Source: a virus | UHGV virus genome: UHGV-0026213 | Length of the DNA: 64,000 nt | Strand: one strand, 5' to 3' | Shown here: in pieces, positions 16,406-37,902 of the stretch | How positions within the stretch are numbered: the stretch's first letter is position 1 | Layout of the letters: each line of letters opens with the position of its first letter | Notes under the pieces: model-generated | The model's input: the letters and a program-made list of their open reading frames with translations, nothing else | The model's database searches: none | What the model was told of the DNA's origin: nothing | Position numbers and translations under genes: made by a program

Positions 16406-17254
16406 ATGTCTCTTACGTCAAAACAGAAACTGCTAAAACTCATCAACACTGAAAACAATATTGTTCCACCATTGACCTTCAGTGATGTTGATATCGGCGA
16501 ACCTACTGGTACTGGGGTTGATACCCAGGTGGTTCTGACTTCTAAACTCAAAGGCGATGAGTCTACTACTTTAACCGTGACTTACCATCGTCGTAATTTG
16601 CCCGAATACCTAACAGGTGAGTTGGTATTCGGTAACGACGGTGTTGTAACCGCCGCAGATTTGCTTAATGCAATCAACGCAAAATACGATTTAAATATCC
16701 TGCCGTCGGATATCGTTGATGCGAAAGTTGAAGGCGAAACCCACCAACTTACCGCTAACGAGAAATCCTACGAGTGGTGCGGCGAGGTGACACTTACGCT
16801 ACGCGATCCTATTGATCTGGCTAAACTATTACCTGTTACTCAATTAGAAAACCTGGTAGAGTATCCGTCCACTAAGAAAGGTAACGCTGCGGTTTATTCT
16901 TATCCAATTGACTTCACCGCAGAAAAAGATTACCTCGATCCGATTACCATTAACGACACTGTCGACCTGGCTGAGTTAGCCACTAAACTGGTCAACGTCG
17001 TTGATGAGAAATGGGTAAGCGTACCTAAAAACGCTGCTAATAACCTCTACGGTGCTAAGGTTATCTACGATGGGCCTACCGCAGGTTATGAAGGTGCAAA
17101 CACAAAGTACACGCGTGTGCTGGTACTCGCACTCAGTGGGCTGTGTGCTAACCTGACCGGTAATCTGTTAATCCACTTTAACGGAACCGATCGTCCGAAG
17201 TCGAAGATTGAATTAGCTAAAACTAATTCGGTCTTACCGGGATTCTTAGATTAA
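16406..17254 (+). CDS. Hypothetical protein, member of a four-gene family (16406, 17268, 20409, 21020)
   Basis: Shared N-terminal pattern (L.N......T..DV.(I/F)G.P........T.V.LT...). Confidence 0.6.
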   Translation: MSLTSKQKLLKLINTENNIVPPLTFSDVDIGEPTGTGVDTQVVLTSKLKGDESTTLTVTYHRRNLPEYLTGELVFGNDGVVTAADLLNAINAKYDLNILPSDIVDAKVEGETHQLTANEKSYEWCGEVTLTLRDPIDLAKLLPVTQLENLVEYPSTKKGNAAVYSYPIDFTAEKDYLDPITINDTVDLAELATKLVNVVDEKWVSVPKNAANNLYGAKVIYDGPTAGYEGANTKYTRVLVLALSGLCANLTGNLLIHFNGTDRPKSKIELAKTNSVLPGFLD

Positions 17255-17267
17255 GAGGATTACAGTA

Positions 17268-17744
17268 ATGACCAGTCAAGAAACTATCTTCGACCTTATT
17301 AAAAAGGCTAACCCAGACGCTGAGCTCGACACCGCCAAAGTTACATTGGGTGAGCCCGTCGTAAGTACCGGTGCGTACAACACCGAAGTTACGGTTGCGT
17401 CAATTAAGAATCTCGGTTATGCTAATAAGCAAACGTTCCAGTATAACCGCATCGATGCAGGTTTGTATTTCCTCAACGTATTGCCGAAACTGTTAGTTGA
17501 ATCAGCTACCACAACTGCGGACTTGCTGCCTGTAATCAATGAGCAGTATGGCTTAACCCTTACTGAAGACGACGTATGGGTAGAGCAGGTTGGTGAGTTA
17601 CCGCTGGACGGCAGTGCAATCGAGCACGGCATTTTCTTCCGTCCTGAATGCCTAACCTGGGTCGGTGGTTTTACAGTGCGCGTTGCACGTAAACCGACTG
17701 TTGAAACACCGCCAGCTAAGCCATCACGCGCTAAGAAGAAATAA
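17268..17744 (+). CDS. Hypothetical protein, family member
   Basis: See 16406. Confidence 0.6.
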   Translation: MTSQETIFDLIKKANPDAELDTAKVTLGEPVVSTGAYNTEVTVASIKNLGYANKQTFQYNRIDAGLYFLNVLPKLLVESATTTADLLPVINEQYGLTLTEDDVWVEQVGELPLDGSAIEHGIFFRPECLTWVGGFTVRVARKPTVETPPAKPSRAKKK

Positions 17745-20408: not shown

Positions 20409-20954
20409 ATGGCTAAAGCTTTCAATCTGCAGCTCATTGAAGCTGTTAAAGCTAAAAACCCTGAAACTGCTTCTAAACTGACCGTAAATGATGTCGATTT
20501 CGGGGCCGTAGAAGCTTACACCCCGGCCGGTAAAAGCGACACCCGTAACACTAAAGTTGTCCTGACAGCGAAGAGCACGAGTGCTAACTTCACCGGTAAT
20601 AAAGAATTTCATTACATCCGTCTGGCGTCCGCTAACCTGATTGGAGCCAAAGCTTACCAGCAAGAAGGTAGCCTCGACCTGGAAAATGACGCTATCGTAA
20701 CCAAACTCAATCAAGAAATGGTTACTAAAGGTTATGTCGATGACGCGTTCGCTGTAGGTGAACTCACTATTGAGAAAACTAATGGCGAGAGCGGTGCTAA
20801 GGTTTACACTATCAAAGTAAATGCTGGGCACATTAAATTCCTACCAGGTACCATTGCCACCTTCACCTATACCAACCCGGTTCCTCCGAAGGTAGCTCTG
20901 AGCGGCCTGGAAGGTGAACTGGATGGTTTCACCGCACCGTCTCCTAAAGAGTAA
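20409..20954 (+). CDS. Hypothetical protein, family member (see 16406); C-terminal LEGELDGFT motif
   Basis: N-terminal family pattern; C-terminus shared with the 21020 product (NGELDGFTS). Confidence 0.6.
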   Translation: MAKAFNLQLIEAVKAKNPETASKLTVNDVDFGAVEAYTPAGKSDTRNTKVVLTAKSTSANFTGNKEFHYIRLASANLIGAKAYQQEGSLDLENDAIVTKLNQEMVTKGYVDDAFAVGELTIEKTNGESGAKVYTIKVNAGHIKFLPGTIATFTYTNPVPPKVALSGLEGELDGFTAPSPKE

Positions 20955-21019: not shown

Positions 21020-21550
21020 ATGGCAGCTACTAACCAGATGATGTTGGTCGCGCTTTATAATGCTGCTAACACTGAGCTACCACATCAGATTACTGATAAA
21101 GAAGTGTCCTTTGGTTTGCCTACTGCGCTGGAAGGCGAAGGTAAGAATACCAAAGTTACCATGACTGCACTACCAGGTTCTGAGAATTTCAAAGGCGCAA
21201 TCGAACTGCATTACGATCGTCTGGAACCGGGTGTTGTAGGGCGTATTGAACTAACTGACGATCTGTCTCGTTGGGAAGATCAAAACGAATTGCGCGCATG
21301 GTTACAATATTACATCAATAAAGTTAAACCGAACGATGCTATTCATCCAGCGGACGTTTCTTATTCTACCGAAGACCAGAAAGACGAACATGAAAACGTC
21401 ACTCTGCGTACGGTAACGTGCACCGTTACTGAAAAGAACCTCCGTTATAAACCAGGTGTAATGGCAACTTTCGTAATTACGCCGAAAGTTGTTGATAATC
21501 GTATTGACCTGGCCACCACCAACGGTGAGCTGGACGGCTTTACGTCCTAA
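21020..21550 (+). CDS. Hypothetical protein, family member (see 16406)
   Basis: See 20409. Confidence 0.6.
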   Translation: MAATNQMMLVALYNAANTELPHQITDKEVSFGLPTALEGEGKNTKVTMTALPGSENFKGAIELHYDRLEPGVVGRIELTDDLSRWEDQNELRAWLQYYINKVKPNDAIHPADVSYSTEDQKDEHENVTLRTVTCTVTEKNLRYKPGVMATFVITPKVVDNRIDLATTNGELDGFTS

Positions 21551-21562
21551 GAAAAAATAAAA

Positions 21563-21608
21563 ATACCTACCTCCTATTACGGGAGGTAGGTATACTATTT
21601 TTTTTCGC
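21563..21608. terminator. Bidirectional terminator between convergent transcription units
   Basis: atacctacctcc-tattacg-ggaggtaggtat flanked by an A-run upstream and T9 downstream. Confidence 0.8.
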
Positions 21609-21614
21609 TGTCGA

Positions 21615-22286
21615 TTACAGCCCTTGCTCTAACGCAAACGCTTTAATTGAATCGTAATCACGTGCTTCAGCCCAAGCCCTGACTTCTCTTTTCTGCTCAG
21701 ACATTGCGTGGTGTAGTCTTTGATCACGCTCAACGATTGCTGCCAGCAACGTCTTGCACTGTTCTAACGTAAACGGTTCGATACGGGTGTTGTTAGCCGT
21801 TAACCAATACGCTGGCGCAGTTTCTGACTGGATATAACGACTCAGTGCTACCTGTGACTTCTCATCTGCCTGGAAAGTGAAATCACCTACCTGAATCTCA
21901 GCATAGCGTGCATCCTGATAACGGAATTCCAAAGCGCTTAGAATTTTCTGAACATCAGTAAAGATATACCGCACCGTGGAACGTAAACCTGTACGAATTT
22001 CTTCCAGGTCAATCCCCAACGTGTCGTTAACAAAGTCTTTCGCTTTCTGTAGCGTAAACCGTGCTTCGATTTCAGACATGTCGTAGTTACGCATTTGTTC
22101 CAATGCTTCGCGATCAGACATCCCATCAATCAGCTTATAGTGCAGTAACGCACAAAACCCTGTACGACCGTGATCTTCGCTACCGATTTTCTCCATGTAG
22201 TTACCATGACGGTCAATCGGTAGATCGTGCGCAAAATAACGGCGACGGATTTCTTCTTTCGTTAAGCCTTCACCAGTAGCAGACAT
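21615..22286 (-). CDS. Hypothetical protein, last gene of the radical-SAM/peptide operon
   Basis: 223-aa ORF overlapping the upstream gene by 25 nt. Confidence 0.55.
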   Translation of the reverse strand: MSATGEGLTKEEIRRRYFAHDLPIDRHGNYMEKIGSEDHGRTGFCALLHYKLIDGMSDREALEQMRNYDMSEIEARFTLQKAKDFVNDTLGIDLEEIRTGLRSTVRYIFTDVQKILSALEFRYQDARYAEIQVGDFTFQADEKSQVALSRYIQSETAPAYWLTANNTRIEPFTLEQCKTLLAAIVERDQRLHHAMSEQKREVRAWAEARDYDSIKAFALEQGL

Positions 22287-22834
22287 TCATCGTCTCCTTT
22301 AATCAACCCTAATTCGATTAACAGTTCAAAATCGATATGACGGAATCTTGTGTCGAAGTCAGATTCCCAATCGATACGGATACCCTGGCATTCTTCTGGC
22401 GTTAGCTCAGGAAAAATCACGCTATTAAATTTCTCCCGCTCATCGTAAAACCCATCAATCGGTGAGTTCGGGTTACGTGTTGCGAAGATAGTAATGCCTG
22501 GGAAGGACAATGCCAACACAGTGATAGATTCTGCGCTGGGTTCGCTTAAAGAGCGGCGTAGAAACGCAATTTTGTGACGTGGGAAATCCAATACCCGCTC
22601 TTCAAACCCTGGATTACGTTTTTCGATTTCCGCGACCGACAGGTCAGTAAGTTCGGTGCAGTACATCGGGATGATCACAGTCACGCCGTGACGAATCAGC
22701 AAGCGTTTTACGTCATCGGTAAAATCTTCACCGTTAATCACCACATAACAACCGAATAGCTTACTGTTTTCCAGAAACTTATCCAGAAGTCGAATTCTAC
22801 GCTTCGTAATATTGTTGATCAGAATTGGTTTCAT
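22262..22834 (-). CDS. Hypothetical protein in the radical-SAM/peptide operon
   Basis: 190-aa ORF overlapping the radical-SAM gene end. Confidence 0.55.
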   Translation of the reverse strand: MKPILINNITKRRIRLLDKFLENSKLFGCYVVINGEDFTDDVKRLLIRHGVTVIIPMYCTELTDLSVAEIEKRNPGFEERVLDFPRHKIAFLRRSLSEPSAESITVLALSFPGITIFATRNPNSPIDGFYDEREKFNSVIFPELTPEECQGIRIDWESDFDTRFRHIDFELLIELGLIKGDDECLLLVKA

Positions 22835-24119
22835 CTTTGGCTTCTCTTAATAATTTTTCCTTTTGGGCGCGTTCACGGACACAGCGTGGACAATAACACA
22901 TACTCGTGTCGTGGAACGCTTTTGCTGACGTCGTACCCATCTTCTGTTTCCAGTATTCCGCCACCATCAGTTTCGCTGTCGTCCAGCCACACTGACGTCG
23001 TTCAGCGTGATACGCTTTACGGTCTTCTAACGTTCCTTCCCCGTTCTCGTAAGAAGCCGCCGCGCAGCTACCACAAGCGTGTTTCATCGGACAACCTAAA
23101 CAGGTCTCTGGGTAGTTGGTATATTGCGTTTGAATCTCTTCTAACAATTTACCGTTGTCCAGACTGACGAATTCCCGACCTACCAACTCAAACACCGCAG
23201 AACGTGACGTTACCGTTGACATAAAGCGGTTACAGCCAAAGATCTTACGGTCAAACCCTAAGCACGTCATGTGCGTTAACGTCCCACAGAACGGACGTAA
23301 ACGTTCTGGGTTCAACCGTACGGTGTCATTATACAGTAACTGGTCACGCCAGTTCGGTTCCCAAATCGTATCGAAATCCAACCCTTCTGGAATGATGTGC
23401 GATAAGATATTACGTGGGTTGGTGTGTAATCCTTTCTCAACCCAATAATCTATCACATCCATCATCTGTAAAGCGATTGACGTCGCCATGCTACGTGGCA
23501 TAACGTCTTCGAAAGTTACGTTTCCAGAAATTGTCCCACCGCCAGTAATGTCAATTAATGACTTCATCCCCGCAGCATAGAACGGCAGCGTTTCTAACGT
23601 AAAGGTTGCTTTTACGCCGAGCTCTGCAATGCCAACCTCTTTTAAGTAGTTATAGCCACGTACTGCGGCTTCGTAAGAACCTTGACGTGTCGTTGTGAAG
23701 ATACGGTATCGATCGTGGGACTCCGGTAAGCCGTCAATCGAAACCCCAACTGAAAGTTTGTCTTTCCAACGTTCTACAATCTCACGGTTCAACGGACGAT
23801 CTAACAGCGTTCCGTTCGTGGAGATACTAAACATAAACGGTCGGTTGTGTTCTTTGCACAACTGCTCAGCGGTTTCAAACGCAGCCAGCAGCAGTTTAGG
23901 CTGCATGAACGGCTCACCACCGATAATGTCGATAATAACTTCAACATTCGGTTCGTTTTTATCACGTTCAAAACAGGCGTGCAAGAAATCAACAATGTCG
24001 GCCGCTTTGTTGTTACGTGGGTACTTACGTTCGTAACAATATTCGCAGTCCAGGTTACACGAAAGGTTGGTTACAATCTGATACGTTAACTGCTTAGGGA
24101 ATTCATTTGCTTGGCTCAT
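22797..24119 (-). CDS. Radical SAM enzyme with SPASM/twitch-like Cys-rich C-terminal domain; candidate peptide maturase
   Basis: CNLDCEYC (CX3CX2C) at residues about 21-28 and IIGGEPFM glycine-rich SAM motif; C-terminal CGTLTHMTC...CLGCPMKHACGSC...CYCPRC cysteine cluster. Confidence 0.8.
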   Translation of the reverse strand: MSQANEFPKQLTYQIVTNLSCNLDCEYCYERKYPRNNKAADIVDFLHACFERDKNEPNVEVIIDIIGGEPFMQPKLLLAAFETAEQLCKEHNRPFMFSISTNGTLLDRPLNREIVERWKDKLSVGVSIDGLPESHDRYRIFTTTRQGSYEAAVRGYNYLKEVGIAELGVKATFTLETLPFYAAGMKSLIDITGGGTISGNVTFEDVMPRSMATSIALQMMDVIDYWVEKGLHTNPRNILSHIIPEGLDFDTIWEPNWRDQLLYNDTVRLNPERLRPFCGTLTHMTCLGFDRKIFGCNRFMSTVTSRSAVFELVGREFVSLDNGKLLEEIQTQYTNYPETCLGCPMKHACGSCAAASYENGEGTLEDRKAYHAERRQCGWTTAKLMVAEYWKQKMGTTSAKAFHDTSMCYCPRCVRERAQKEKLLREAKDETNSDQQYYEA

Positions 24120-25026
24120 TTGCCGCCCCTCTATTACGCCCTGCCATCACCACACGACGAATATATTCGTACGCCTCTACACCGATAGAGAAGGCCAGTT
24201 GGTTACATCCCGATTCCAGAACGTTAGGCGCATTCTGGAGTTGGTGCTCACCGCCGTCTGCATTAATCCAAAGACTTTCGCTGCAAACGTTACACCCTTC
24301 TTCAAACACTTTACTTACCGTAAAGCCGCATTCACGACTATTTACTACATTCAGTCGTTCAATGTTGTCCTGAACCTGATAGTAGCCGTAAATAAAGTTC
24401 ATGACGTGGTCAGGCGATAAAGGTTTTGGCATTTTCGCATCTAAGAGTAACGTCATTGCACGGAAACCGTAATGGTAAATCGCGCTGTGCAGCTGAATAA
24501 TATCTTCGTGCCAGCGTTTGTCCCCTAAACGGTCCCGTGTCAGGACACCCCAAGTCTGGACATTATCCAGCTCGTAGATCGTTTCCAGTGCTTCGTAACA
24601 GCCTTCGTCAATAAAGCGCATAAACGGGCGCTCAGACGACTTAAACCCATCGATGCTAACGTAGACATTGTCAAACTGTTTTAGCAACGGGAGATGCGAT
24701 TTACGCATCTTTAAGCCATTGGTATACAACTGGTGTTTGAGTTCTGGACGAATCACTTTTAATTCGTCAACAAACGCCTCAATTTTACGGGTTGCCAGTA
24801 ATGGCTCACCACCCGTCCACTGAATTTCGGTAATGGTTGGATTAGCTTCCAGCGCTTCCAAAATTCGTTCACGTTGAAACTCTCGCGGAGAATCTTCACG
24901 ATTCATGTAATAGGCTCCACCGCAGAAGCTACAGTCCAGGTTACACTTGGACGTAGCGACTACGGACAATACGGTGGGTTTATCGTATAAACGATTCGAT
25001 AACCTTGGTTCTGCATTGGTTGTCAT
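24103..25026 (-). CDS. Radical SAM enzyme (second, shorter)
   Basis: CNLDCSFCGG CX3CX2C motif and WTGGEPLL; GGAG RBS. Confidence 0.75.
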   Translation of the reverse strand: MTTNAEPRLSNRLYDKPTVLSVVATSKCNLDCSFCGGAYYMNREDSPREFQRERILEALEANPTITEIQWTGGEPLLATRKIEAFVDELKVIRPELKHQLYTNGLKMRKSHLPLLKQFDNVYVSIDGFKSSERPFMRFIDEGCYEALETIYELDNVQTWGVLTRDRLGDKRWHEDIIQLHSAIYHYGFRAMTLLLDAKMPKPLSPDHVMNFIYGYYQVQDNIERLNVVNSRECGFTVSKVFEEGCNVCSESLWINADGGEHQLQNAPNVLESGCNQLAFSIGVEAYEYIRRVVMAGRNRGAANEPSK

Positions 25027-25047
25027 TGCAGGTGACTCCGGTCGTTT

Positions 25048-25947
25048 TTAAATATAATCAATGGCGAACAAAGGATCGTCGTCTACGTTAGCACCAGGGG
25101 TTAACAAGAATGGAGAGTTATACGCTTCCAAAATACGGTTAAGGTCTTTATAACGGACATTTAAACGTTCTAAATCCGCTAACGTTACGTTACGGTCCAA
25201 CACCGCCGACACTGCTGCTTTCTCTTCGTCAGTTAACGTGACTTTCGTCATTAAGAAACTAACGAGTTTTGCCAGATCCGCTTCTGTTGACGGATGCTCG
25301 CCAATACGTGTTTGAATCAAATGCTGCATCCAAGGCTTACGGATGCGTTTTGTGATTTCGTGTTCATCCGTCAGGGCAATCCACACGGAACGTTCACGAT
25401 CCCACACGAACTTATAGCTATACGCCATTAAATCCGCTAAGCAATTAATCCCTAACGCTTCGTACCCTTCAATTTCGATATACGATTCCGTATCGAAATA
25501 GTTCTTCGTTTCTGGTGTTACCAGGGTAAAGAAATACGGGAACGAGCCTAAGTAATCCGGCGACCACCAACGACGGGCAACTGGTTTTGCGCCCATTTCT
25601 TCAAATGGGGTAAAGAACAATTCCATATCTACGGAGTTATTCAAAATCCCGTCACTAAAGAAATATTTACCCGCAACCAGTTTACCACGCAACTCGGAGT
25701 CACCGGTAAAGACCACTACACTTTCTGCCGTCAGATCACGAATCTTAAACGTATTTTCTACACGATAGTTTTTACGATCGGTAAAGAAACGTCCGCGCAC
25801 TTTAGGCCATTCGCCCGGCAACTGAGTCAGCAGACGAACTTCATCTGCTAAGTGTGCACGTACGGAATCAGGGGAAGAAATGTGAAGTGGATGATTGAAA
25901 ATTGTTTTGTACGCTAAATGTAAATCATTCTTCATTGATTGCTCCAT
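25048..25947 (-). CDS. Hypothetical protein between peptide genes and radical-SAM genes
   Basis: 299-aa ORF, no motif recognised; candidate accessory protein by position only. Confidence 0.5.
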   Translation of the reverse strand: MEQSMKNDLHLAYKTIFNHPLHISSPDSVRAHLADEVRLLTQLPGEWPKVRGRFFTDRKNYRVENTFKIRDLTAESVVVFTGDSELRGKLVAGKYFFSDGILNNSVDMELFFTPFEEMGAKPVARRWWSPDYLGSFPYFFTLVTPETKNYFDTESYIEIEGYEALGINCLADLMAYSYKFVWDRERSVWIALTDEHEITKRIRKPWMQHLIQTRIGEHPSTEADLAKLVSFLMTKVTLTDEEKAAVSAVLDRNVTLADLERLNVRYKDLNRILEAYNSPFLLTPGANVDDDPLFAIDYI

Positions 25948-26084
25948 TTATTTCACGGTCAAACGGACATTCAGGGTATAGAACCCACCGCGCCATTGCC
26001 TACCGGTGACTTGAAACTCAGTAGTAAACCCGTACGATTAACTCGGTTATTGCGTAATAGACATACTACCACTGGAGGGCTTAG

Positions 26085-26291
26085 TTACCTTCCCCCCGCA
26101 CCTTTACTACAGCTACCACTGCACGACCAGCTACATCCACCGTTACAGTTATAATGGCTTAAAGGTAAACCGGCAAGGTTGTTGGTTGAAGACACGGTGC
26201 CTTGGTTTGCAATATAGTTGTTTGCGTTAGCGGTCGTAATATACCCTTCCGCTGTTACTAACCGATCACGAAGGTTCTTAAGGCTAATCAC
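26085..26291 (-). CDS. Cys-rich precursor-like peptide C (short core)
   Basis: GGGAGG RBS 4 nt before GTG at about 26291; product (M)ISLKNLRDRLVTAEG...LSHYNCNGGCSWSCSGSCSKGAGGR. Leader and leader-core junction are conserved with peptides A and B. Confidence 0.55.
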   Translation of the reverse strand: MISLKNLRDRLVTAEGYITTANANNYIANQGTVSSTNNLAGLPLSHYNCNGGCSWSCSGSCSKGAGGR

Positions 26292-26293
26292 AA

Positions 26294-26692
26294 TTACCTC
26301 CCAGAACACCCACCAGAACAACTACCTGAGCAGCCTGCAGAACAGTTTCCTACACACGAGTTAGAACAACTCCCCGTACAGCTTCCTGAACAGCCACCAG
26401 AACAGGTATTCGAACATCCACTACAGCCTGCACTACAACCTGATACACAGTTTGCAGAACAGGAAGAACCACAGCCGCCTGATGCGTTCCCCGTACAACC
26501 ACCAGAACAGCTCGAACAGGTCCAGCTACAGCTCCCACCACAGTCATAGTGGTTGCGAGCTTGTCCACCGAATAAGTCTGCGTTGTTCGTCGCTTTCCCA
26601 CGAATATAGTTTTGTACTGCACCCGTATTCTTCAATGCAGTGTTGTCAATGTTATTTAGCCGCGCTTGTAGCGCAGGTAATCCAATTGCCAT
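26294..26692 (-). CDS. Cys-rich precursor-like peptide B (about 50-aa leader plus about 80-aa Cys/Gly/Ser core)
   Basis: Core ...HYDCGGSCSWTCSSCSGGC... with Cys every 3-5 residues (about 24 Cys); leader similar to peptide A. Confidence 0.65.
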   Translation of the reverse strand: MAIGLPALQARLNNIDNTALKNTGAVQNYIRGKATNNADLFGGQARNHYDCGGSCSWTCSSCSGGCTGNASGGCGSSCSANCVSGCSAGCSGCSNTCSGGCSGSCTGSCSNSCVGNCSAGCSGSCSGGCSGR

Positions 26693-26702
26693 TTTTCACC
26701 TC

Positions 26703-27098
26703 TTAGGTTGGGCCAGAACAGCCACCAGAGCAAGCACCAGAACAACCCGTAGAACAACGGCCCGAGCAAGCGCCCCCACAGGTCCCACTGCAACCTGAGC
26801 AGCCACCGGAACACGTTGAACTACATCCAGTACACTGGTTACCGCACGCGGATGAGCAGCTACCTACACACACTGACGTGCAGGTGCCCGAACAACTCGT
26901 ACAGCCATGCGTACAACCGTTTGAGCACGTCCAGCTACAGCTTCCCCCGCAGTCTAACCGACTTGGCGTCCAACCCGAAAAAGTGTCGGCGGCATTATGT
27001 GCTTTCGACGCAACTTGCGGATCAACACGTGGGCCAGTTGCCATTTGGTTCTCTACGTTGGTGATTCGGTCACGTACATTTTTAACACTGATCGCCAT
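26703..27098 (-). CDS. Cys-rich precursor-like peptide A
   Basis: AAGGA RBS then ATG at about 27098; leader MAISVKNVRDRITNVENQ..., core ...RLDCGGSCSWTCSNGCTHGC... with about 25 Cys. Confidence 0.65.
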   Translation of the reverse strand: MAISVKNVRDRITNVENQMATGPRVDPQVASKAHNAADTFSGWTPSRLDCGGSCSWTCSNGCTHGCTSCSGTCTSVCVGSCSSACGNQCTGCSSTCSGGCSGCSGTCGGACSGRCSTGCSGACSGGCSGPT

Positions 27099-27103
27099 CA
27101 CGT

Positions 27104-27156
27104 ATCCTTAAAATAAAAAAGAATGGAGGACTACGCCCATAAGCATAGTTCCTCCT
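27104..27156 (-). terminator. Minus-strand terminator/attenuator between the 401-aa fibre gene and the Cys-rich peptide genes
   Basis: On the minus strand: ggaggaactatg...cgtagtcctcc hairpin followed by attcttttttatttt, about 20 nt before the peptide A start codon. Confidence 0.6.
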
Positions 27157-27165
27157 GTAATAAAG

Positions 27166-28371
27166 TTATTTCGTACCCGCTTCTGCCTGAACGTCATCAC
27201 GGGACGTCAAGTTAGCGTTAACGTGTACTGGAGCCTGAACCACACCACCGTATTTCTTGTGGAGATAGCCTGTGTGTGGGTTATCTGCCGCAATATGGTT
27301 TTGTAGGTTCTGATTCGCCTGACTGATTGCGTTCGTGTTATTCGCAACCTGTTGTTTAAGCGCATCCAGGTTTTGTTGCAGATTATCAATTTTCTGATCG
27401 GACTCATTACCCCGCTGTTCTAACGCAGCAATGCGCTGAATCGCTTGATTGAGTTTGGTGCTCAGATCGTTGATATTTTTCTGTAACTGTAACACTAGCG
27501 AATTTAGGTTCGCCAATGCCAATGCCATTTTCTGGTAGTTTTGGGCAACGATGTTAAGTTGGTCGTTCCACGCTTCCAAAGATTTGACAACAGCATCAAT
27601 ACGTTTTCCTAACGCTTCGTCTGCTTTCTTCAACGCATTAATATCAGTAATGGTTGCATCGATGGCAGACTGCACATCACGGATCAGTGCACGGATCTCC
27701 GTTTCTGTTAACCCGTTAACCTGGTGAATATCCAGATGGTGGACGTTACCCGTGGCGTTAATGTGCGCGTTCAGTGCGTCCAGGAAATCGTTTTTCAGGC
27801 TTTCGAGAATCGCTTTGATGTTCTCAAGCTGTACAGCATCGCCCGCCGTTATCGCATCTTTAATGCCAGCGAGCACTGTAATGATATATTCGAAGCCGTA
27901 AATATCACCGACGTCTTTATACGTCGGTGCCGACGGAAATGTATCAGGAACATTTCGCAAGTCTTTAAAGCCAACAGTTCGATTATCGAGATTCAACTCA
28001 GCAATCGCCTGTTCTATCGCGGGCACGTTTGCCGACTGCGGACCCCCGACTACTTGCGCCGATACCGTGATATCGGTCGGAATCGCGGTGTTCGTTACAA
28101 CAACCGCCATTACTACTTCCCGGTTCTTCGTCAATTTCTCGTAAGCCTGGTGTGCAAAAATCAACTCATAGTCCGTTCCGCGCTCATACGTCGCATCTGG
28201 GCGGTTGGCAACCCGCAAGCGAAACGTATCAGCATAAAACGGTCCATCAGGAAAAGCAAACGCACGGTTAACTTTACCTGTACCTAACGTAACCTGACGC
28301 TCCACGGCGTTAGAGGTTAGGGTTCCCGTTAAATCTAAAGGGTATTGGTATACAATGGAGGCCATGGCCAC
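27166..28371 (-). CDS. Tail fibre-like protein: N-terminal module shared with the three giant fibre genes plus long coiled coil
   Basis: N-terminal FPDGPFY...GTDYEL module; residues about 170-360 are heptad-rich helical sequence. Confidence 0.6.
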   Translation of the reverse strand: MAMASIVYQYPLDLTGTLTSNAVERQVTLGTGKVNRAFAFPDGPFYADTFRLRVANRPDATYERGTDYELIFAHQAYEKLTKNREVVMAVVVTNTAIPTDITVSAQVVGGPQSANVPAIEQAIAELNLDNRTVGFKDLRNVPDTFPSAPTYKDVGDIYGFEYIITVLAGIKDAITAGDAVQLENIKAILESLKNDFLDALNAHINATGNVHHLDIHQVNGLTETEIRALIRDVQSAIDATITDINALKKADEALGKRIDAVVKSLEAWNDQLNIVAQNYQKMALALANLNSLVLQLQKNINDLSTKLNQAIQRIAALEQRGNESDQKIDNLQQNLDALKQQVANNTNAISQANQNLQNHIAADNPHTGYLHKKYGGVVQAPVHVNANLTSRDDVQAEAGTK

Positions 28372-28405
28372 TCTCCTTAATCCGAGACGTCCTTGTCCCG
28401 TGGCG

Positions 28406-31400
28406 TTAAGATGTAAACATAAGATTGAACTGGAGCTTATCGATATCGCGCGTTTGTGCTGGGTTAACCGCGTCGTACGTGGTTGCCACGTAGACCGTTA
28501 ATGTCCCGTCAGCAAACGAAGTTTTCACCGGTGGCGTAGTCCCTGTCTGTCCATCAGTTACAATGACGACAGGTTGAGACGGGAGTTGATGGAACTGACC
28601 CTTAACCGCTTTATACACCAAACCAGATTGCGCTGCTAACTCCGTGTCGGTATAGACGATAAACGGCGTGTCGATATCTGTCTGTTTAATGACAGTGTTC
28701 GTCTCAACGTCAATCAGCTGAACAGCACCGAACTTCGTACGGTAGCTATCGTATTCATTTTTTGGAATGACAAACGTAGCATGTACACGGACTTCTTCGG
28801 CGGGCTTAAATCCGGCGTGTTCTTTTTCCAGATAGCTGTTAGCAGTTAACGTTACTGTCTGTTCAGTCATCGTACCACCAGACTGGTTTAACCCGTAACG
28901 AACTTGGGTTATACCTGTCGGAGCCGCAAGCCTGATTTTTAGTCTACGGTTAGCGGTACCAGGATCGCCTGGCACTCTAACACGCAGACTCATCGCCAGA
29001 TATGCTTTCGCACCGGTAGTCGGTTTCGTATACGCACCCAACCACTTCATATTCGCGGTTGCCGCTTGACTGTTCTCAGAAGCAGTAGCCGCTGCAACGT
29101 TCGCAGCAACCGCTTTCTGCCAGAACTGGTCAGCACAGTTCTCATACGCTACTCTACCGATACTTTTATAACCTGCGTAGGTTTCCTGTATCGGTAGCTT
29201 GGGTCGTGTTGTAACCCCGTTCAACGCATTCCATCTCTGACCATCGACATACCCTGCACCATTGCTCGCAGATGCCGTGGGGGCTTTCAGCGGTTGGTTA
29301 ACCAAGGTTTGGAGTGGACCCGTTTTTCGATCGTACGCCGCTGCAACGTCGTGCTGATCTCTAACGGCAGCGTGTTCTTCTAATTCACGAACCCTGCCTA
29401 GTCGTTTCACTTTATCGATGTTGATAGCAACTATGCGCTTTTTATCGGTTGTGACTGTACCAACAAATAATCGCGAAGTCGTATCAGGCAGCTTTTCCAG
29501 GCCGATCTGATATTGAGCTTTCGAACCTACAAGAGCAGCATGAACATAGAACGTCTGGTTAGCATGGTTTTCTGGGAATTCATTGCTTAAATCCACCGAC
29601 CACGTCGGTAATGTATAGCTATTACTACCGAAATCTAACCTGACCTCTTCCGTCAAGTATAGAATCCAACCTTCCGCGGTTTCCACGCCTGCGATAATAA
29701 CTGCCTGCCCCGCTGTTGAGAATGTGGTATCATTAACGAACTCTTCGACTGTGTATGCGTTACCTGAACAGAAAACGCGGTCAGCTTTAGAGAAAATTCG
29801 TGCCATCTTGTCCCAATTACCCGCACCCATGTAACAACCAGATTCTGGGTTGTGGGCAGGAGCCATCTGACGCAACTGTGACTTACCGGGAACGCGAGTC
29901 CAACCCGACCCTGGGTCGAAGGTGTACTTCGCAGCGTAACCCAAAGCATTTAGGTCCCCGATATTCCGTAATGTCAGCGTATAAGGTAGCCATAGACCGA
30001 AGTTTACACCGTCGGCAGAAGCAAAAATTGGCTGGCCTACACGTCGCGTTTTATTACCCGCTTCTTCCCTCAGAGACTGATTACTTAAGCCGTAATCAAG
30101 GTCTAAGAACCAATCTACCAGCTTAAAGGTTGCAGAGTTAAAACGTAGATAACCGTTTTCTTTAGTCGGACTCACCATGAAATAATAGATGTCGAGAACT
30201 CGACGTCCGTTACTCAAGATTTTCATGCATGAGACTTGTAATAAGTCGAACTCACAAACAGTGTTAATGCCTAGCAACCATAGCGCAAACAACGCGTTGC
30301 CGCTTTGGTGTGCTGCGCTGATGCGCTCGTTCGCGTAACCGTTTGCTTGGCCAGATGGTGCACCATCGACAATCATCCTAATCATTTTCTGGCGATCCGC
30401 TTCCTCTAACGTCAGCCGTTCTGATGACAGGGCAAAGTTACCGTAGATGTTCCGATATGGAAAGGTTTCCGCTTTCGTCAAATACCAACCATTTAACTGA
30501 CCGTGACGCTCCTCTGGAGTCATGCAAGCAGCCATACAGCTTAACTGTTCGTAAAGCGTCGGATCAACTTCTCGACGGTTGTTGTTCGGGCCATAACCGC
30601 CGTATCCCGGAACGTCATAAGGTTTACTTGGGTCAACTTCTACTTCGATCGTATAGCGGTTACGTGGATTGGATAGCCAAACCTTATTCGAACCACCAAT
30701 ACCGACAGGATGAGAAAGACCAATGGTATAGATAGAACCACGACCTTTATCCCAAGCAAATGATCCTTCACCTGAGGTATTGTTCGGGTTATCGTAACGC
30801 AAATAATCAAAAAGCTCTTTGCCTTGCGTCCCTTTAATAGTAACGCTTGGCATCTGGTCCGCATCGTTAATCTGCCAGCAGGAAAGCATCATTCCTGTGC
30901 CGTTGGGTTTAGCATACGTCGCAAAACAACGATTATTTGCTATACCGCCACCCCACTTACGACTGGTTTCTACAGTTGAGCCATCCGCGAACGATAGTCT
31001 GGTAGTATCAACTTTAAGTGGGAATCTCTCGGCACCCTCTAACGTAACTCTGCCCGTTAACGTATCGATTGTGAAACTTGTTGACCATTGACGGAAATTA
31101 ATCGTCGAACCGTCGGCTGCCGCAAACCACACGGTGGGTACATGGTTCACACGAATCACGCTGTCGCGGACCGCACAAGCATGGCTACACTCTGGACCGT
31201 GAACAAAGCTGTGACCGATTGTCCATTTAGCCCGTGCCTCTGGCGGGTAATACGTAAAGAACTGACCAGTCTGCGACTCTTCGGTCTTCTGACCAATTCG
31301 TAAACAGAGGTTATCTCCGAATTGCCCCATTTCTCCGGTTAGGGTTACACGTTCAAATTCTAACTCAGTATTGGTAGTCAAATCGGCTTTACGTAAACGC

Positions 31401-33589
31401 CATGCCGCCACGGCATAAGCAGCGTTATTTACCGTAGAACGAAGAAGATAAACGTGGTCGTCAACTAACACAACATCGTCAGCTTCTGGCCAAGGATTCC
31501 AGGTTTGTTCCACAGTACCGCTGGGGTTGCCATTACGGTATTTAGGCATTGTAACACGACATACCACCGTGTGTTTACTGTGGTCCATTGAACCATTGAA
31601 CAACACCAAATAACGGTTATTGTCAGAACCCAGACAAATAATCGCTTCCTGGCCACCGATCAAAATCGCTTTTAAGGTCACTCCAGGGTATTTACTCATC
31701 CCAACAGGATGGTATTTCACCGAAGTTTGCTGAGGGTTCACAAACGCATTCGACGTATTGATATCAGCATAACCGTAGTAAATCGCCTCTGTACCAGGCA
31801 CACCATTAGAAGCATTACGTAACGAATAAACTTTACCTTGCTGATAACCCACGACACCTTTCTGATAGGACTGGTTCTTTGTAAAGCCTGAATAATTACC
31901 GAGTGCCGGAATGGGTAAGAAGTTTTTGTTACCGAACTTCGCCCCACCGACAGTCCACGCAGGTAAGATGGTATTCAGTTTATCGGAAACCTTCTTGATC
32001 TCTTTTGCGAACAACCACCCTTGACGCGACGTGACAGCTTTGTCGTTCGTGGCATCAATCGCATCCCACAGCTGTAAGATACCATCCACGGTCGCACTAC
32101 CAATCGGGACATTATCCAAATCGGCGGTAGTGTGCGTGTGCTCCTTCACACTTTTATTTTTCAGCACATTCGCTAACGCTTTTGTTACCGGTTTAGCGAT
32201 CGGCATGGTGTTATCCATCTTATCGATACCGAAATCGGTTTTCGTTAAGGTTAACACCATTTTATCGCCCGTCTTAACAAACCCTTTACCGTTAACCGTG
32301 TAGTCATCGTCAACGTACAGGTCCAAGCGGTCTTTTAATTCGGTCACCGCCTTTTGGGAAATAGCAGTGCCTAGTGCTACGGAGGTTGCGATATTCGTAA
32401 TCGAAAACACCCCATAAACCGACTCAGTTGCTGTGGGAATATTCGCGTTCAACGTTAGCGGATTAGACTGCTTCGCTGTACCGTATGGTTTTACGGTGTC
32501 TGATGGTTTGAAATAGGCATTTGCTTCAAGTAACGTTACAGACGTCAGGTACATGTTCACCATTTCTGGTGTAACCAAATACACAGAGTTGTAAACCGGC
32601 GCTAATACATCCTGTTCTGTCCCAGAGTGTACCCAAAGCGTATTCAGTCCCGCACTAAATTCAACCGCCAAACCCGATTCGTTGTTGTCCTGGTCTGCTT
32701 TAATCACCAACGGTTGTGGTGAGGTAATTAACCACTTATCACCACGGATGCTGATAATGTGTCCGCCTGCTGTTTTAAACGTCAGTTCGTTACCGTTCGT
32801 GCTACCCCAACGACCGTAAACGGTACCAAGGGCTTCACCCATTAACTGATCAACGTCTGATTGCTCAATACCCGCCGAACCCATCAGCGTAGCCAATTCG
32901 TCAATCGTCAGTCCAAACGCTTTTGTAGCGTCGACAGCACGTCCCAAAACCGGAAGGGCACCAACATCAGTGGTCGTATACTGGTGTGCGTTAGGATTAA
33001 GGTGGTGTTGGTATAACTCCTCGTCGAAAACCTTTTTACCGTTCTCGTAAATCAGGTTAGTGACTTCGGTAAACGCTGCATCTAACTCTGTTGAACGTTG
33101 AATGATTTTCTTACGGATGTCGTTTAACGCTTTAACAACCTCATCCCTCAGAATAGCTTCTTCTAAGTTAGCAGGAGGATCGATGGGTTGAATAACTGGC
33201 GCATACGCCATTAACTCTGACCAGTCCACGTTACGTGGGTCTTTCAGGTCAGTACGAACTAAGAACTTTCCGATTTCAGATTGTGGTACACGATACTGGC
33301 GTGCTACCCCTAAAATCTCATATTCTATTTCTGTTGCGGTCAGCAACATGAACCCGCCGTAAATCTGATCTTGCTCAGCTTCTGCGAGTTCTTTAAAGTA
33401 ATAGCCTAAATAGTAGTCCAACCCCTCAATCAGAGTACGACGTCCGTTAGGCGCGGTATCGTCGGCTACTGTGAGTTTTAATCCGATACGATAAAAAGGT
33501 CCTTCGGGCGGAATGACCACATTAAATCGGTTAGGGTACGTCGCTGTGCTTAACGTACCGTTAAACTGCGCCGCGTCTTCTCTCGGCAT
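28406..33589 (-). CDS. Giant tail fibre or tailspike-like structural protein (1727 aa)
   Basis: N-terminal PPEGPFY...GLDYYL module shared with neighbours; AGGAG RBS. Confidence 0.65.
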   Translation of the reverse strand: MPREDAAQFNGTLSTATYPNRFNVVIPPEGPFYRIGLKLTVADDTAPNGRRTLIEGLDYYLGYYFKELAEAEQDQIYGGFMLLTATEIEYEILGVARQYRVPQSEIGKFLVRTDLKDPRNVDWSELMAYAPVIQPIDPPANLEEAILRDEVVKALNDIRKKIIQRSTELDAAFTEVTNLIYENGKKVFDEELYQHHLNPNAHQYTTTDVGALPVLGRAVDATKAFGLTIDELATLMGSAGIEQSDVDQLMGEALGTVYGRWGSTNGNELTFKTAGGHIISIRGDKWLITSPQPLVIKADQDNNESGLAVEFSAGLNTLWVHSGTEQDVLAPVYNSVYLVTPEMVNMYLTSVTLLEANAYFKPSDTVKPYGTAKQSNPLTLNANIPTATESVYGVFSITNIATSVALGTAISQKAVTELKDRLDLYVDDDYTVNGKGFVKTGDKMVLTLTKTDFGIDKMDNTMPIAKPVTKALANVLKNKSVKEHTHTTADLDNVPIGSATVDGILQLWDAIDATNDKAVTSRQGWLFAKEIKKVSDKLNTILPAWTVGGAKFGNKNFLPIPALGNYSGFTKNQSYQKGVVGYQQGKVYSLRNASNGVPGTEAIYYGYADINTSNAFVNPQQTSVKYHPVGMSKYPGVTLKAILIGGQEAIICLGSDNNRYLVLFNGSMDHSKHTVVCRVTMPKYRNGNPSGTVEQTWNPWPEADDVVLVDDHVYLLRSTVNNAAYAVAAWRLRKADLTTNTELEFERVTLTGEMGQFGDNLCLRIGQKTEESQTGQFFTYYPPEARAKWTIGHSFVHGPECSHACAVRDSVIRVNHVPTVWFAAADGSTINFRQWSTSFTIDTLTGRVTLEGAERFPLKVDTTRLSFADGSTVETSRKWGGGIANNRCFATYAKPNGTGMMLSCWQINDADQMPSVTIKGTQGKELFDYLRYDNPNNTSGEGSFAWDKGRGSIYTIGLSHPVGIGGSNKVWLSNPRNRYTIEVEVDPSKPYDVPGYGGYGPNNNRREVDPTLYEQLSCMAACMTPEERHGQLNGWYLTKAETFPYRNIYGNFALSSERLTLEEADRQKMIRMIVDGAPSGQANGYANERISAAHQSGNALFALWLLGINTVCEFDLLQVSCMKILSNGRRVLDIYYFMVSPTKENGYLRFNSATFKLVDWFLDLDYGLSNQSLREEAGNKTRRVGQPIFASADGVNFGLWLPYTLTLRNIGDLNALGYAAKYTFDPGSGWTRVPGKSQLRQMAPAHNPESGCYMGAGNWDKMARIFSKADRVFCSGNAYTVEEFVNDTTFSTAGQAVIIAGVETAEGWILYLTEEVRLDFGSNSYTLPTWSVDLSNEFPENHANQTFYVHAALVGSKAQYQIGLEKLPDTTSRLFVGTVTTDKKRIVAINIDKVKRLGRVRELEEHAAVRDQHDVAAAYDRKTGPLQTLVNQPLKAPTASASNGAGYVDGQRWNALNGVTTRPKLPIQETYAGYKSIGRVAYENCADQFWQKAVAANVAAATASENSQAATANMKWLGAYTKPTTGAKAYLAMSLRVRVPGDPGTANRRLKIRLAAPTGITQVRYGLNQSGGTMTEQTVTLTANSYLEKEHAGFKPAEEVRVHATFVIPKNEYDSYRTKFGAVQLIDVETNTVIKQTDIDTPFIVYTDTELAAQSGLVYKAVKGQFHQLPSQPVVIVTDGQTGTTPPVKTSFADGTLTVYVATTYDAVNPAQTRDIDKLQFNLMFTS

Positions 33590-33604
33590 CGTAAAGACTC
33601 CTAC

Positions 33605-33645
33605 TTTTAAATAAAATGGATACCCCTCCCCGTTACAGGGAGGGG
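33605..33645 (-). terminator. Minus-strand terminator between the 1402-aa and 1727-aa genes
   Basis: cccctccc-cgttaca-gggagggg hairpin with T-rich sequence on the minus-strand 3' side; a second hairpin at about 33649-33674. Confidence 0.6.
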
Positions 33646-33683
33646 TTACCTACGGACACACAACTGCCCGTAGGCAGCCTGTC

Positions 33684-37892: not shown

Positions 37893-37902
37893 AAAATTCT
37901 CC

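Follow-up and report, generated by a model that had tools for sequence, protein, structure and literature searches.

The closest described relative of the genes discussed here is the CXXX-repeat system of bacteria, which consists of a target protein (TIGR04114), paralogs of that target (TIGR04117) and a radical S-adenosylmethionine (radical-SAM) maturase (TIGR04115). Going by the names of these models, the system has been defined computationally, and no published chemistry is known for it. A second relative, PapB of freyrasin synthesis in Paenibacillus polymyxa, forms six thioether rings in CX3D motifs by linking the cysteine sulfur to the beta-carbon of aspartate; it also accepts the gamma-carbon of glutamate, and a carboxylate is required (PMC9413430). 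The subject of this report is a gene module in the virus genome UHGV-0026213, of which a stretch of 64,000 nucleotides (the window) was analyzed. The window belongs to an SPN3US-like (Seoulvirus-type) jumbo phage; the DNA of its enzyme genes is ~73 % identical to that of SPN3US and the proteins are ~83 % identical. Directly downstream of the tail-fibre genes, the minus strand encodes three small cysteine-repeat proteins, two radical-SAM enzymes (A and B) and three further proteins. By sequence comparison, we would class the module as a diverged version of the CXXX-repeat system that is adapted to phages; the curated thresholds place it outside the system proper. We give an even chance to the combined reading that the radical-SAM enzymes install thioether cross-links in the cysteine-repeat proteins and that these proteins are associated with the phage tail.

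The three cysteine-repeat proteins, called peptides 1, 2 and 3 below, are encoded on the minus strand at 26703-27098 (131 amino acids (aa) from an ATG; phrog_6085, E 1.6e-40), 26294-26692 (132 aa; phrog_6085, E 4.7e-38) and 26085-26291 (68 aa from a GTG, the same start as in SPN3US). Their leaders of 49, 50 and 48 aa are followed by cores of 82, 82 and 20 aa, which contain 21, 20 and 4 cysteines, respectively. A preliminary description of the window had given leaders of about 45-50 aa, which agrees with these lengths, and cores of 80, 80 and about 20 aa, of which the first two are slightly too short. It had also given cysteines at every 3-5 residues. The cores are indeed dense in cysteine, but the register is sharper than that, the Cys-to-Cys spacing being exactly 4 in 310 of 359 cases among 23 peptides from nine phages. 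In the same 23 cores, serine, glycine and cysteine make up 29 %, 27 % and 25 % of the residues, and aspartate and glutamate do not occur. Each core starts with C(G/N)G(S/G)CSW(T/S)CS, contains a single invariant tryptophan and ends in CSG(P/R) or a close variant. The junction that the three peptides were said to share is a common motif, and it is shared only approximately (RLDCGGSCSWTCS in peptide 1, HYDCGGSCSWTCS in peptide 2 and HYNCNGGCSWSCS in peptide 3).

The number of cysteines is 21 in peptide 1 of all nine phages and 20-23 in peptide 2 across the genera. Peptide 3 has 4, but only 2 in the Derbicus- and Wellingtonviruses, where its core consists of the junction alone, C(N/G)G(S/T)CSW(S/T)SSGGAK. 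The window's peptide 3 keeps the CxGxCSW junction and matches a hidden Markov model (HMM) of the leader with E 9e-20. With the CXXX target-repeat model TIGR04114, which has a cut-off of 20 bits, peptide 2 scores 20.4, peptide 1 14.4 and peptide 3 12.8 bits. The leader HMM, built from 23 leaders, finds exactly three paralogs per phage, in a fixed order, and no other match in the window. We had considered that the leader might be a domain shared with the fibre proteins; this idea was abandoned, the HMM matching the three paralogs only. AlphaFold2, with the three window paralogs as the alignment, gave peptide 1 a predicted local distance difference test (pLDDT) score of 37, with one N-terminal helix at residues 5-21; the core is predicted, at low confidence, to be disordered.

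Comparisons with SPN3US, Asesino and CR5 indicate how these genes evolve. The ratio of nonsynonymous to synonymous differences (pN/pS) is ~0.3 in the leader and core alike, with pN at 0.2-0.4 and pS at 0.7-0.9, where synonymous sites are near saturation. The aligned cysteines are kept in 20 of 20 or 21 of 21 cases in most comparisons and in 17 of 19 in one, and swaps between TGT and TGC are frequent. Because the cysteines persist at such a pN/pS while synonymous sites are near saturation, the peptide genes are real and under purifying selection and are not chance low complexity. All three are unannotated in the RefSeq/GenBank record of SPN3US (NC_027402, 143191-144220, minus strand), where we place peptide 1 at 143828-144220, peptide 2 at 143413-143817 and peptide 3 at 143191-143397. 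That record instead has an out-of-frame ORF (open reading frame) of 111 aa (gp100 = SPN3US_0166) over peptide 2, and in Erwinia phage pEa_SNUABM_29, opposite-strand ORFs are annotated at the peptide genes. Since the true ORFs were missing from the search database, virion proteomics of SPN3US could not have detected the peptides. Tryptic fragments that could reveal them can be derived from the leaders, e.g., VQIVEANMATGPR and IDAQVASK.

Radical-SAM enzyme A (307 aa; 24103-25026, minus strand) contains the motifs CNLDCSFC and GGEPLL, and radical-SAM/SPASM enzyme B (440 aa; 22797-24119, minus strand) contains CNLDCEYC, GGEPFM and CLGCPMKHACGSC. The preliminary description had proposed profile searches, and with the radical-SAM model PF04055 they bear out both assignments (E 6e-14 for enzyme A and 3e-15 for enzyme B). 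The Pfam SPASM model, on the other hand, has no match in enzyme B at E<=0.1. However, the CX3CX2C motif of enzyme B (residues 20-27) is accompanied by eight auxiliary cysteines (C...C...GC, CX2CX5CX2C and C). These do not vary when enzyme B is aligned with 13 distant relatives, and judged by this alignment, enzyme B carries the full SPASM cysteine set. The view of the second enzyme as SPASM/twitch-like can thus be kept, and it has to be extended to the first: nine enzyme A orthologs have, in addition to the invariant C28, C32 and C35 of CX3CX2C, an invariant C245, C248 and C274 (CX2C...C), which suggests a twitch-like three-cysteine motif near the C-terminus. The two enzymes are 25 % identical over the core.

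The best curated matches of enzyme B are PapB (NF047865, 116.8 bits) and, 2 bits behind, TIGR04115 (114.7 bits, E 6.5e-33), which is matched from position 3 to 345 of its 359 by residues 10-371. With the SCIFF maturase model TIGR03974, enzyme B scores 59.6 bits against a cut-off of 425, which places it outside that family. The nearest solved structures by sequence are CteB (5wgg, E 6e-14) for enzyme B and SkfB (6efn, E 3e-6) for enzyme A. An N-terminal RiPP recognition element (RRE), or PqqD-like domain, RiPP being a peptide made by the ribosome and modified after its translation, is absent from both enzymes, CX3CX2C beginning at residue 20 in B and at residue 28 in A. Alignments to RRE-bearing families begin at positions ~85-105 of the latter; because the alignment with CteB begins at CteB residue 105 and enzyme B residue 19, enzyme B lacks a peptide-binding domain of this kind. 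The three CXXX-repeat genes adjoin the enzyme B gene, 1-3 kb upstream on the same strand.

Relatives of enzyme B with 25-44 % identity are common on viral contigs of IMG/VR. Of the 81 viral loci that were fetched, 77 carry a CXXX-repeat ORF on the same strand, recognized by a run of five or more cysteines at spacings of 3-5. A set of 65 non-jumbo loci with a cysteine run of at least eight was studied in detail. The Cys-repeat gene is on the strand of the enzyme in all 65 and upstream of it in 51, with a median gap of 845 nucleotides (nt), and 85 % of the Cys spacings are 4. The encoded proteins have 11-78 cysteines and a median length of 263 aa, the longest being 937 aa; they are not short peptides, but often proteins of 200-940 aa in which the repeat domain is internal or C-terminal. 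The closest outgroup is L090, a viral contig of 213 kb with genes for both an enzyme B-like and an enzyme A-like protein. One of its proteins, 568 aa long, can be aligned at the C-terminus with the window peptides, beginning at '...N.NA..LGGQ....Y.CGGSCSWSC' and continuing across the repeats as far as 'C.GR'. The junction is at residue ~456, and the last ~15 residues of the leader are shared, in L090 alone. Its PHROG matches are to phrog_6085, into which the window peptides fall, and to a virion-structural family.

The Cys-repeat gene of L119 (phrog_6085, E 1.5e-20; TIGR04114, 36.8 bits) is between baseplate-wedge genes (phrog_120 and phrog_6) and tail/tail-fibre genes, and L104, L106 and L113 also have genes for tail-fibre, tail, baseplate or virion-structural proteins on their flanks; the neighbours of L129 have no PHROG matches. 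Placement in the tail clusters of unrelated phages, often as a domain of a large protein, is new as far as we found. In the literature that was searched, we found nothing that links this enzyme family or the module genes to phages or phage tails, in agreement with the remark in the preliminary description that its author knew of no such arrangement described as a phage module.

The TIGR04115 scores form a continuum from bacteria to the window: 487 bits for the bacterial L022 and 454 for the bacterial L012 (cut-off 350), 447 for the viral contig L104, 341 for the viral contig L106, 316 and 309 for the gut-phage contigs L119 and L124, 157 for L090 and 115 for enzyme B of the window. The two bacterial loci have precursors of 59-100 aa, three of them in tandem in L012, where an ABC exporter and two AMP-binding enzymes are encoded nearby; phage genes were not found near L012 or L022. 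This is how a classical RiPP cluster is laid out. Their maturase ORFs (L012 5851-8067 and L022 5944-8124) encode 726-738 aa, and since this is about twice the model length, these maturases carry a large uncharacterized C-terminal extension. Other relatives, with 30-40 % identity, are present in Deferribacter and Campylobacter. The radical-SAM genes of Campylobacter phages, which gave weak matches, proved to be unrelated, as they lack a CXXX partner and their surroundings differ.

Several additional features of the non-jumbo loci were recorded. Two conserved accessory ORFs are present between the Cys-repeat gene and the enzyme gene (L104, L113, L119, L124 and L160). The one immediately upstream of the enzyme gene encodes ~102 aa and was seen in 67 loci, and the one before it encodes ~199 aa and was seen in 61; NCBIfam recognizes neither. 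The possibility that they correspond to the 299-aa or 190-aa protein of the window was rejected, since hhalign found no similarity. The 460-aa Cys-repeat protein of L106 (4529-5920 on a 180-kb contig) has an F5/8 type C match at residues 52-130 that is below threshold (22.7 vs. 28.2 bits), a hint that some Cys-repeat proteins carry receptor-binding domains. N-terminal matches in L090 (hexapeptide-transferase-like, E 0.05) and L129 (carbohydrate-binding-module-like, E 0.14) are likewise sub-threshold.

Returning to the jumbo phages, the block from the gene for a 401-aa fibre protein to the gene for a DUF4376 protein keeps its gene order in Seoulvirus, Erskinevirus, Machinavirus, Wellingtonvirus and Derbicusvirus, i.e., in ~62 cultured phages, and the downstream flank of the block is rearranged among these five genera. 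The peptide leader is found in 62 phage records, the 299-aa protein in 63, full-length enzyme B in 64 and the full-length 401-aa fibre protein in 63, and the host-genus counts of the four sets agree. The 401-aa gene (27166-28371, minus strand) is directly upstream of the module and encodes a fibre/baseplate-associated virion protein, the homolog of SPN3US gp167 and a possible partner of the module's products. It is 78 % identical to SPN3US 'virion structural protein 20' and has coiled-coil-type matches at residues 223-362; 57 further jumbo phages have only its N-terminal ~200-250 aa. Two irregularities were seen among the relatives. L102 (IMGVR_UViG_3300045988_078609, 224.8 kb), which is among the closest, has a second, full-length copy of enzyme A (2564-3484; E 1e-130 to the enzyme A profile) between peptides 1 and 2, besides the normal copy. 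The records of the Salmonella phages SPFM5, 6, 7, 8, 9, 10, 12, 14, 15 and 20 have only short patches of similarity in the radical-SAM and 299-aa protein genes, with high HMM scores, which look like frameshifted or scrambled assemblies and not like loss of the module.

The preliminary description had placed four fibre genes upstream of the module. Four large minus-strand ORFs (27166-42225) are indeed present at the positions of SPN3US gp167-gp170 by synteny, the last three at 28406-33589, 33684-37892 and 37903-42225; homology was checked for the first three of the four. Mass spectrometry detected gp167-gp170 in the virions of SPN3US; gp167 was not marked as a head protein, and gp168-170 are candidates for baseplate or fibre proteins (PMC5694885). 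The virion table lists gp160 and gp167-170 and none of gp161-166 (PMC5694885). The text of that paper assigns gp161 to virion paralog family B, yet its Supplementary Table 1 contains gp160, a family B member, and no gp161 (PMC5694885). Because the table of detected proteins has gp160 and not gp161, the latter, i.e., the DUF4376 protein, is probably not a demonstrated virion protein. Otherwise, gp161-166 are not mentioned in the SPN3US papers, and the SPFM genomics paper does not discuss the module genes; the idea of 'hairy' tail fibres in these phages was considered and dropped for lack of support. SPN3US gp160, of 'paralog family B', is a very abundant protein of the head. At its position, the window has two tandem plus-strand ORFs (20409-20954 and 21020-21550), compared with one in SPN3US; together with 16406-17254 and 17268-17744, they have similar N-termini ('...LI...N......T..DV.FG.P...') and look like one paralog family.

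The remaining genes of the module are all on the minus strand. The 299-aa protein (unk299; 25048-25947), a homolog of SPN3US gp165 (phrog_8030), opens a coupled enzyme block, followed by enzymes A and B, a 190-aa protein (unk190; 22262-22834; gp162 homolog, phrog_7988) that overlaps the genes on both sides, and the 223-aa DUF4376 protein (21615-22286; gp161 homolog; PF14301, E 5e-11), which is last. The gaps between these five genes are 21, -17, -38 and -25 nt, and they are translationally coupled. The preliminary description had listed the module as three peptides, a 299-aa protein, two radical-SAM enzymes and two further ORFs; ORF calling returned the same order and coordinates on the minus strand, and every motif that had been quoted is there. 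The bidirectional intrinsic terminator that had been noted after the last gene was also found, as a 13-bp stem with 6 GC pairs and T-runs on either strand (21563-21593), and there are no terminator-like sites on the minus strand within the module before it. The spacer between peptide 3 and unk299 is 137 nt (25948-26084), but only ~12-22 nt at the same junction in SPN3US and CR5.

Profiles from Pfam, NCBIfam and PDB sequences have no match to unk299 or unk190, and AlphaFold2 from a single sequence gave unk299 a pLDDT of 34. The 41 clusters of unk299 all come from jumbo-phage-size contigs or phage records; unk190 has 12 clusters, with orthologs in all five genera and a conserved S..E.EKRNPGFE.R motif. 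Both proteins are confined to this phage clade. The DUF4376 protein belongs to phrog_8169, has additional weak matches to tail-fibre/tail-protein PHROGs and is encoded syntenically in all five genera. No protease or transporter domain was found in any of the eight genes of the module.

The earlier statement that there is no room for an independent promoter did not hold, in that a gap of 67 nt with a conserved hairpin (27125-27155, minus strand) separates the 401-aa fibre gene from peptide 1. The 76-nt intergenic segment containing it folds with a minimum free energy of -23.4 kcal/mol (z -4.7), and seven other phages have equivalent hairpins (8 of 8 compared; z -2.6 to -5.4). Their stems differ between genera by compensatory change, and a UAUG in the loop is invariant; 3' of the hairpin there is a T-run and then a Shine-Dalgarno sequence in most genera. 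These folds are from single sequences; RNAalifold on a MAFFT alignment gave no pairs, the arms being misaligned. The hairpin may serve to terminate or attenuate transcription, to stabilize the RNA, or as a promoter or transcription start, perhaps for a phage polymerase. A TATG loop is, we assume, linked with the late promoters of phiKZ. As a general late promoter or punctuation signal, the TATG-loop hairpin was rejected, because the window has just seven scattered copies, with ~2.4 expected, and thus no recurrent signal. Given the conserved hairpin in this gap, expression of the module need not track that of the fibre genes in a fixed ratio.

In the reading that we favour, a phage would have recruited a CXXX-repeat/radical-SAM maturase system to its tail-fibre region, and the three Cys-repeat proteins would be made late, together with the fibre genes. 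Enzyme B, as a SPASM enzyme with two auxiliary Fe-S clusters, would bind them and use a 5'-deoxyadenosyl radical to turn many of the ~20 cysteine thiols into intramolecular thioether bridges to nearby serine, threonine, glycine and alanine carbons, and so a disordered Gly/Ser/Cys chain would become a ladder of small covalent rings. Enzyme A, which is twitch-like, would make a further modification. Its site could be the invariant CxGxCSW junction, which is weakly indicated and which we name because the cores have two kinds of conserved element and the junction is the sole remnant of the core in some peptide 3 orthologs. The cross-linked products would be tail- or baseplate-associated parts of the virion, or assembly factors, and not exported antibiotics. 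Presumably, what thioethers would offer is a disulfide-like covalent stability, independent of redox state, which could be built in within a reducing cytoplasm that does not allow disulfides to arise. The sequences themselves show how the block is made up, the purifying selection on the peptides, the Fe-S motifs of the enzymes, the family ties of enzyme B, its almost universal pairing with a CXXX-repeat gene and the setting in tail clusters. We infer the role of the peptides as substrates, the thioether nature of the bonds and the tail association of the products: the thioether bridging because the named relatives PapB, CteB and SkfB form thioethers at cysteine, and the tail association because of the gene context. 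As the cores contain no aspartate or glutamate, the chemistry cannot be that of PapB, and the acceptor would have to be a serine, threonine, glycine, alanine or asparagine carbon or another Cys-derived position.

Several sets of observations count in support of this reading. The top matches of enzyme B (PapB and TIGR04115), its full SPASM cysteine set and the nearest solved structures (CteB and SkfB) all lead to thioether-forming enzymes or CXXX-repeat maturases. CXXX-repeat ORFs are beside the enzyme B relatives in the 77 viral loci mentioned above and in the best-scoring bacterial loci, and the TIGR04115 scores grade from one group into the other. L090 has the junction and repeats fused to a large protein with a virion-structural match. 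Four fibre/baseplate genes precede the block, the first minus-strand terminator after them is the one at 21563-21593, the last gene has weak tail-fibre matches, and there is no protease or exporter, in contrast to the exporter of L012. Three paralogs in a fixed order, with a constant 21 cysteines in peptide 1, are kept in five genera, which resembles a constraint on stoichiometry, and the record counts of leader, enzymes, unk299 and full-length fibre protein agree. The preliminary description had left open whether the module makes a modified peptide or cross-linked Cys-rich structural proteins. The evidence favours the structural alternative, because elsewhere the repeat domain is in proteins of 200-940 aa inside baseplate/tail-fibre clusters. 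A more general form of the reading, about which we are more reserved, is that thioether-ring ladders in the CXXX domains of tail, baseplate and fibre proteins are a widespread but unrecognized class of enzymatically cross-linked virion proteins that extends from Salmonella and Erwinia jumbo phages to gut phages. The bacterial 'CXXX-repeat RiPP' family would then be the small-peptide cousin of this virion-protein class, a part of the same reading that we likewise hold with somewhat less than even confidence.

A number of points weigh against these proposals. The modification of the peptides, their expression and their location in the virion are things that we infer, and location in a tail cluster is circumstantial. 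The products of gp161-166 are not in the SPN3US virion proteomics, a result that is uninformative for the peptides, whose ORFs were outside the database. The lack of aspartate and glutamate in the cores excludes the Cys-to-Asp/Glu chemistry of PapB, and the scores of enzyme B fall well short of the curated thresholds for both of its best models (115 vs. 350 bits for TIGR04115 and 117 vs. 340 for PapB). The window proteins have the small size and the leader-core layout of true RiPP precursors. Furthermore, their leader is not homologous to the ~110-aa domain that precedes the repeats in the gut-phage proteins (hhalign probability 0.3 %), and an apparent likeness to it in an 'LKNxVRxE' helix was dropped. 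Finally, neither the peptides (pLDDT 37 for peptide 1) nor the accessory proteins (34 for unk299) have a confident structure prediction.

Some of these points would suit a diffusible RiPP better. The leaders would then guide modification and be cut off by a host protease or an unidentified one, the cores would be released at lysis to act on other bacteria, competing phages or host physiology, and the position after the fibre genes would reflect late timing only. This explanation, which we regard as unlikely although it deserves attention, is favoured by a well-conserved 49-aa leader under purifying selection, by the leader-core layout and small size, and by the three tandem paralogous precursors, which recall those of the bacterial L012. 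Bona fide bacterial members are in exporter-type clusters, the enzymes are not among the SPN3US virion proteins, and the conserved hairpin parts the module from the fibre genes and may give it separate regulation. However, the block conserved across five genera has no protease, exporter or immunity gene, and most other phages have the repeats in large proteins of tail/baseplate clusters, as in L090, where the junction comes at about residue 456 of 568. In addition, by the sizes generally known for RiPPs, an 82-aa core with 21 cysteines is far beyond the PapA type with its six cross-link motifs.

Two other explanations put the enzymes to different uses. The Cys-repeat proteins could be carriers of metal, Fe-S clusters or sulfur, i.e., metallothionein-like proteins or cluster scaffolds, with the enzymes acting elsewhere, for example on the fibre proteins or a small molecule. 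A content of 25 % cysteine in a Gly/Ser matrix does resemble that of metal-binding proteins, the phage's Fe-S enzymes need a supply of clusters, and unk299 and unk190 could be the real targets or partners. Nevertheless, the enzyme family is defined by adjacent CXXX targets and is found with them in both bacteria and phages, its nearest characterized relatives modify Cys-containing peptides, and a strict four-residue register with constant cysteine counts fits templated modification better; for these reasons, we consider the carrier explanation improbable. The last explanation, to which we attach hardly any probability, is that the enzymes are auxiliary metabolic genes of the nucleotide, cofactor or viperin type and that the Cys-rich ORFs are spurious low-complexity frames. 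Models of MoaA, QueE, NrdG and viperin do match enzyme A weakly, one public record names the pair AlbA and MoaA, and the SPN3US RefSeq record is without the Cys-rich frames. But those matches are limited to the N-terminal radical-SAM core and are 5-10x below the cut-offs, so that the cofactor- or viperin-type identity that the preliminary description had named as evidence against RiPP maturation was not found. As for the Cys-rich frames, five genera have retained them, cysteines included, at a pN/pS of ~0.3, and the gp100 frame in RefSeq is the out-of-frame overlap. For practical purposes, this explanation is refuted.

If the structural reading is true, phages apply RiPP-type radical chemistry to their own tail-associated proteins and not to antibiotics, and an enzyme-made covalent bond would be added to what is known of virion architecture. 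The orphan CXXX-repeat radical-SAM family would gain a function and a chemistry, with substrates that have 20-78 potential cross-links per chain. It would also explain two conserved 'radical SAM' genes in ~60 sequenced jumbo phages that are used in biocontrol work. With its amber mutants, SPN3US serves as a genetic model, and mass spectra of its virions have been published, which makes the question directly testable. Even if the products are diffusible, this would be a conserved RiPP pathway in strictly lytic phages, of which we found no report.

How, then, does the module compare with the known systems? A conserved leader of 48-50 aa, a Cys-repeat core and modifying enzymes in the same operon are a RiPP architecture. 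The preliminary description had recognized this from the Cys-rich leader-core peptides beside radical-SAM/SPASM enzymes, and the PapB and TIGR04115 matches agree with it; its more specific label, a sactipeptide/ranthipeptide-type cluster, applies to the layout, but the precise relative is the CXXX-repeat family and not the classical sactipeptides. In terms of chemistry, the thioether runs from the cysteine sulfur to the alpha carbon of the acceptor residue in a sactipeptide and to a non-alpha carbon in a ranthipeptide. PapA/PapB is the equal-best family match and resembles the module in having a SPASM enzyme without an N-terminal extension and a substrate of repeated Cys-X3 units; it differs in that the phage cores have ~20 cysteines instead of six and no aspartate or glutamate, and in the score of enzyme B (117 bits, with a cut-off of 340). 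CteA/CteB and SkfA/SkfB provide the nearest solved structures, and the substrates of CteB and SkfB are ribosomal peptides that contain cysteine. A twitch domain is present in SkfB, and the three-cysteine motif of enzyme A may correspond to it, while CteB has an N-terminal RRE domain that enzyme B does not. SCIFF peptides, as seen at many loci, have six cysteines in ~45 aa and no CXXX register, unlike the larger window peptides with their 20-21 cysteines in register. Outside the RiPPs, the proposed analogy is with the capsid 'chainmail' of HK97, in which Lys-Asn isopeptide cross-links form autocatalytically. In both cases, covalent bonds made inside the reducing cytoplasm would stabilize an extracellular particle; in the module, dedicated radical-SAM enzymes would act on tail-associated cysteine proteins.

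The closest comparison is still with the CXXX-repeat system itself. Enzyme B spans the whole TIGR04115 model and has CX3CX2C and the SPASM cysteines, the phage targets are strict Cys-x-x-x repeats rich in glycine, serine and threonine, and tandem precursor paralogs are present in the bacterial L012 as well. The differences are that the phage module includes another radical-SAM enzyme besides enzyme B, as well as three proteins specific to the clade, is without the exporter and the AMP-binding enzymes of L012, sits in a tail-fibre operon, and has cores without the aspartate and glutamate that are common in the bacterial and gut-phage versions. The family thus comes in two forms: in bacteria the repeats make up small peptides that are exported, and in phages they are domains within larger proteins of tail modules. 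The window version is in between, with small leader-bearing proteins like those of the bacteria, but encoded, with no protease or exporter, in a tail-fibre operon.

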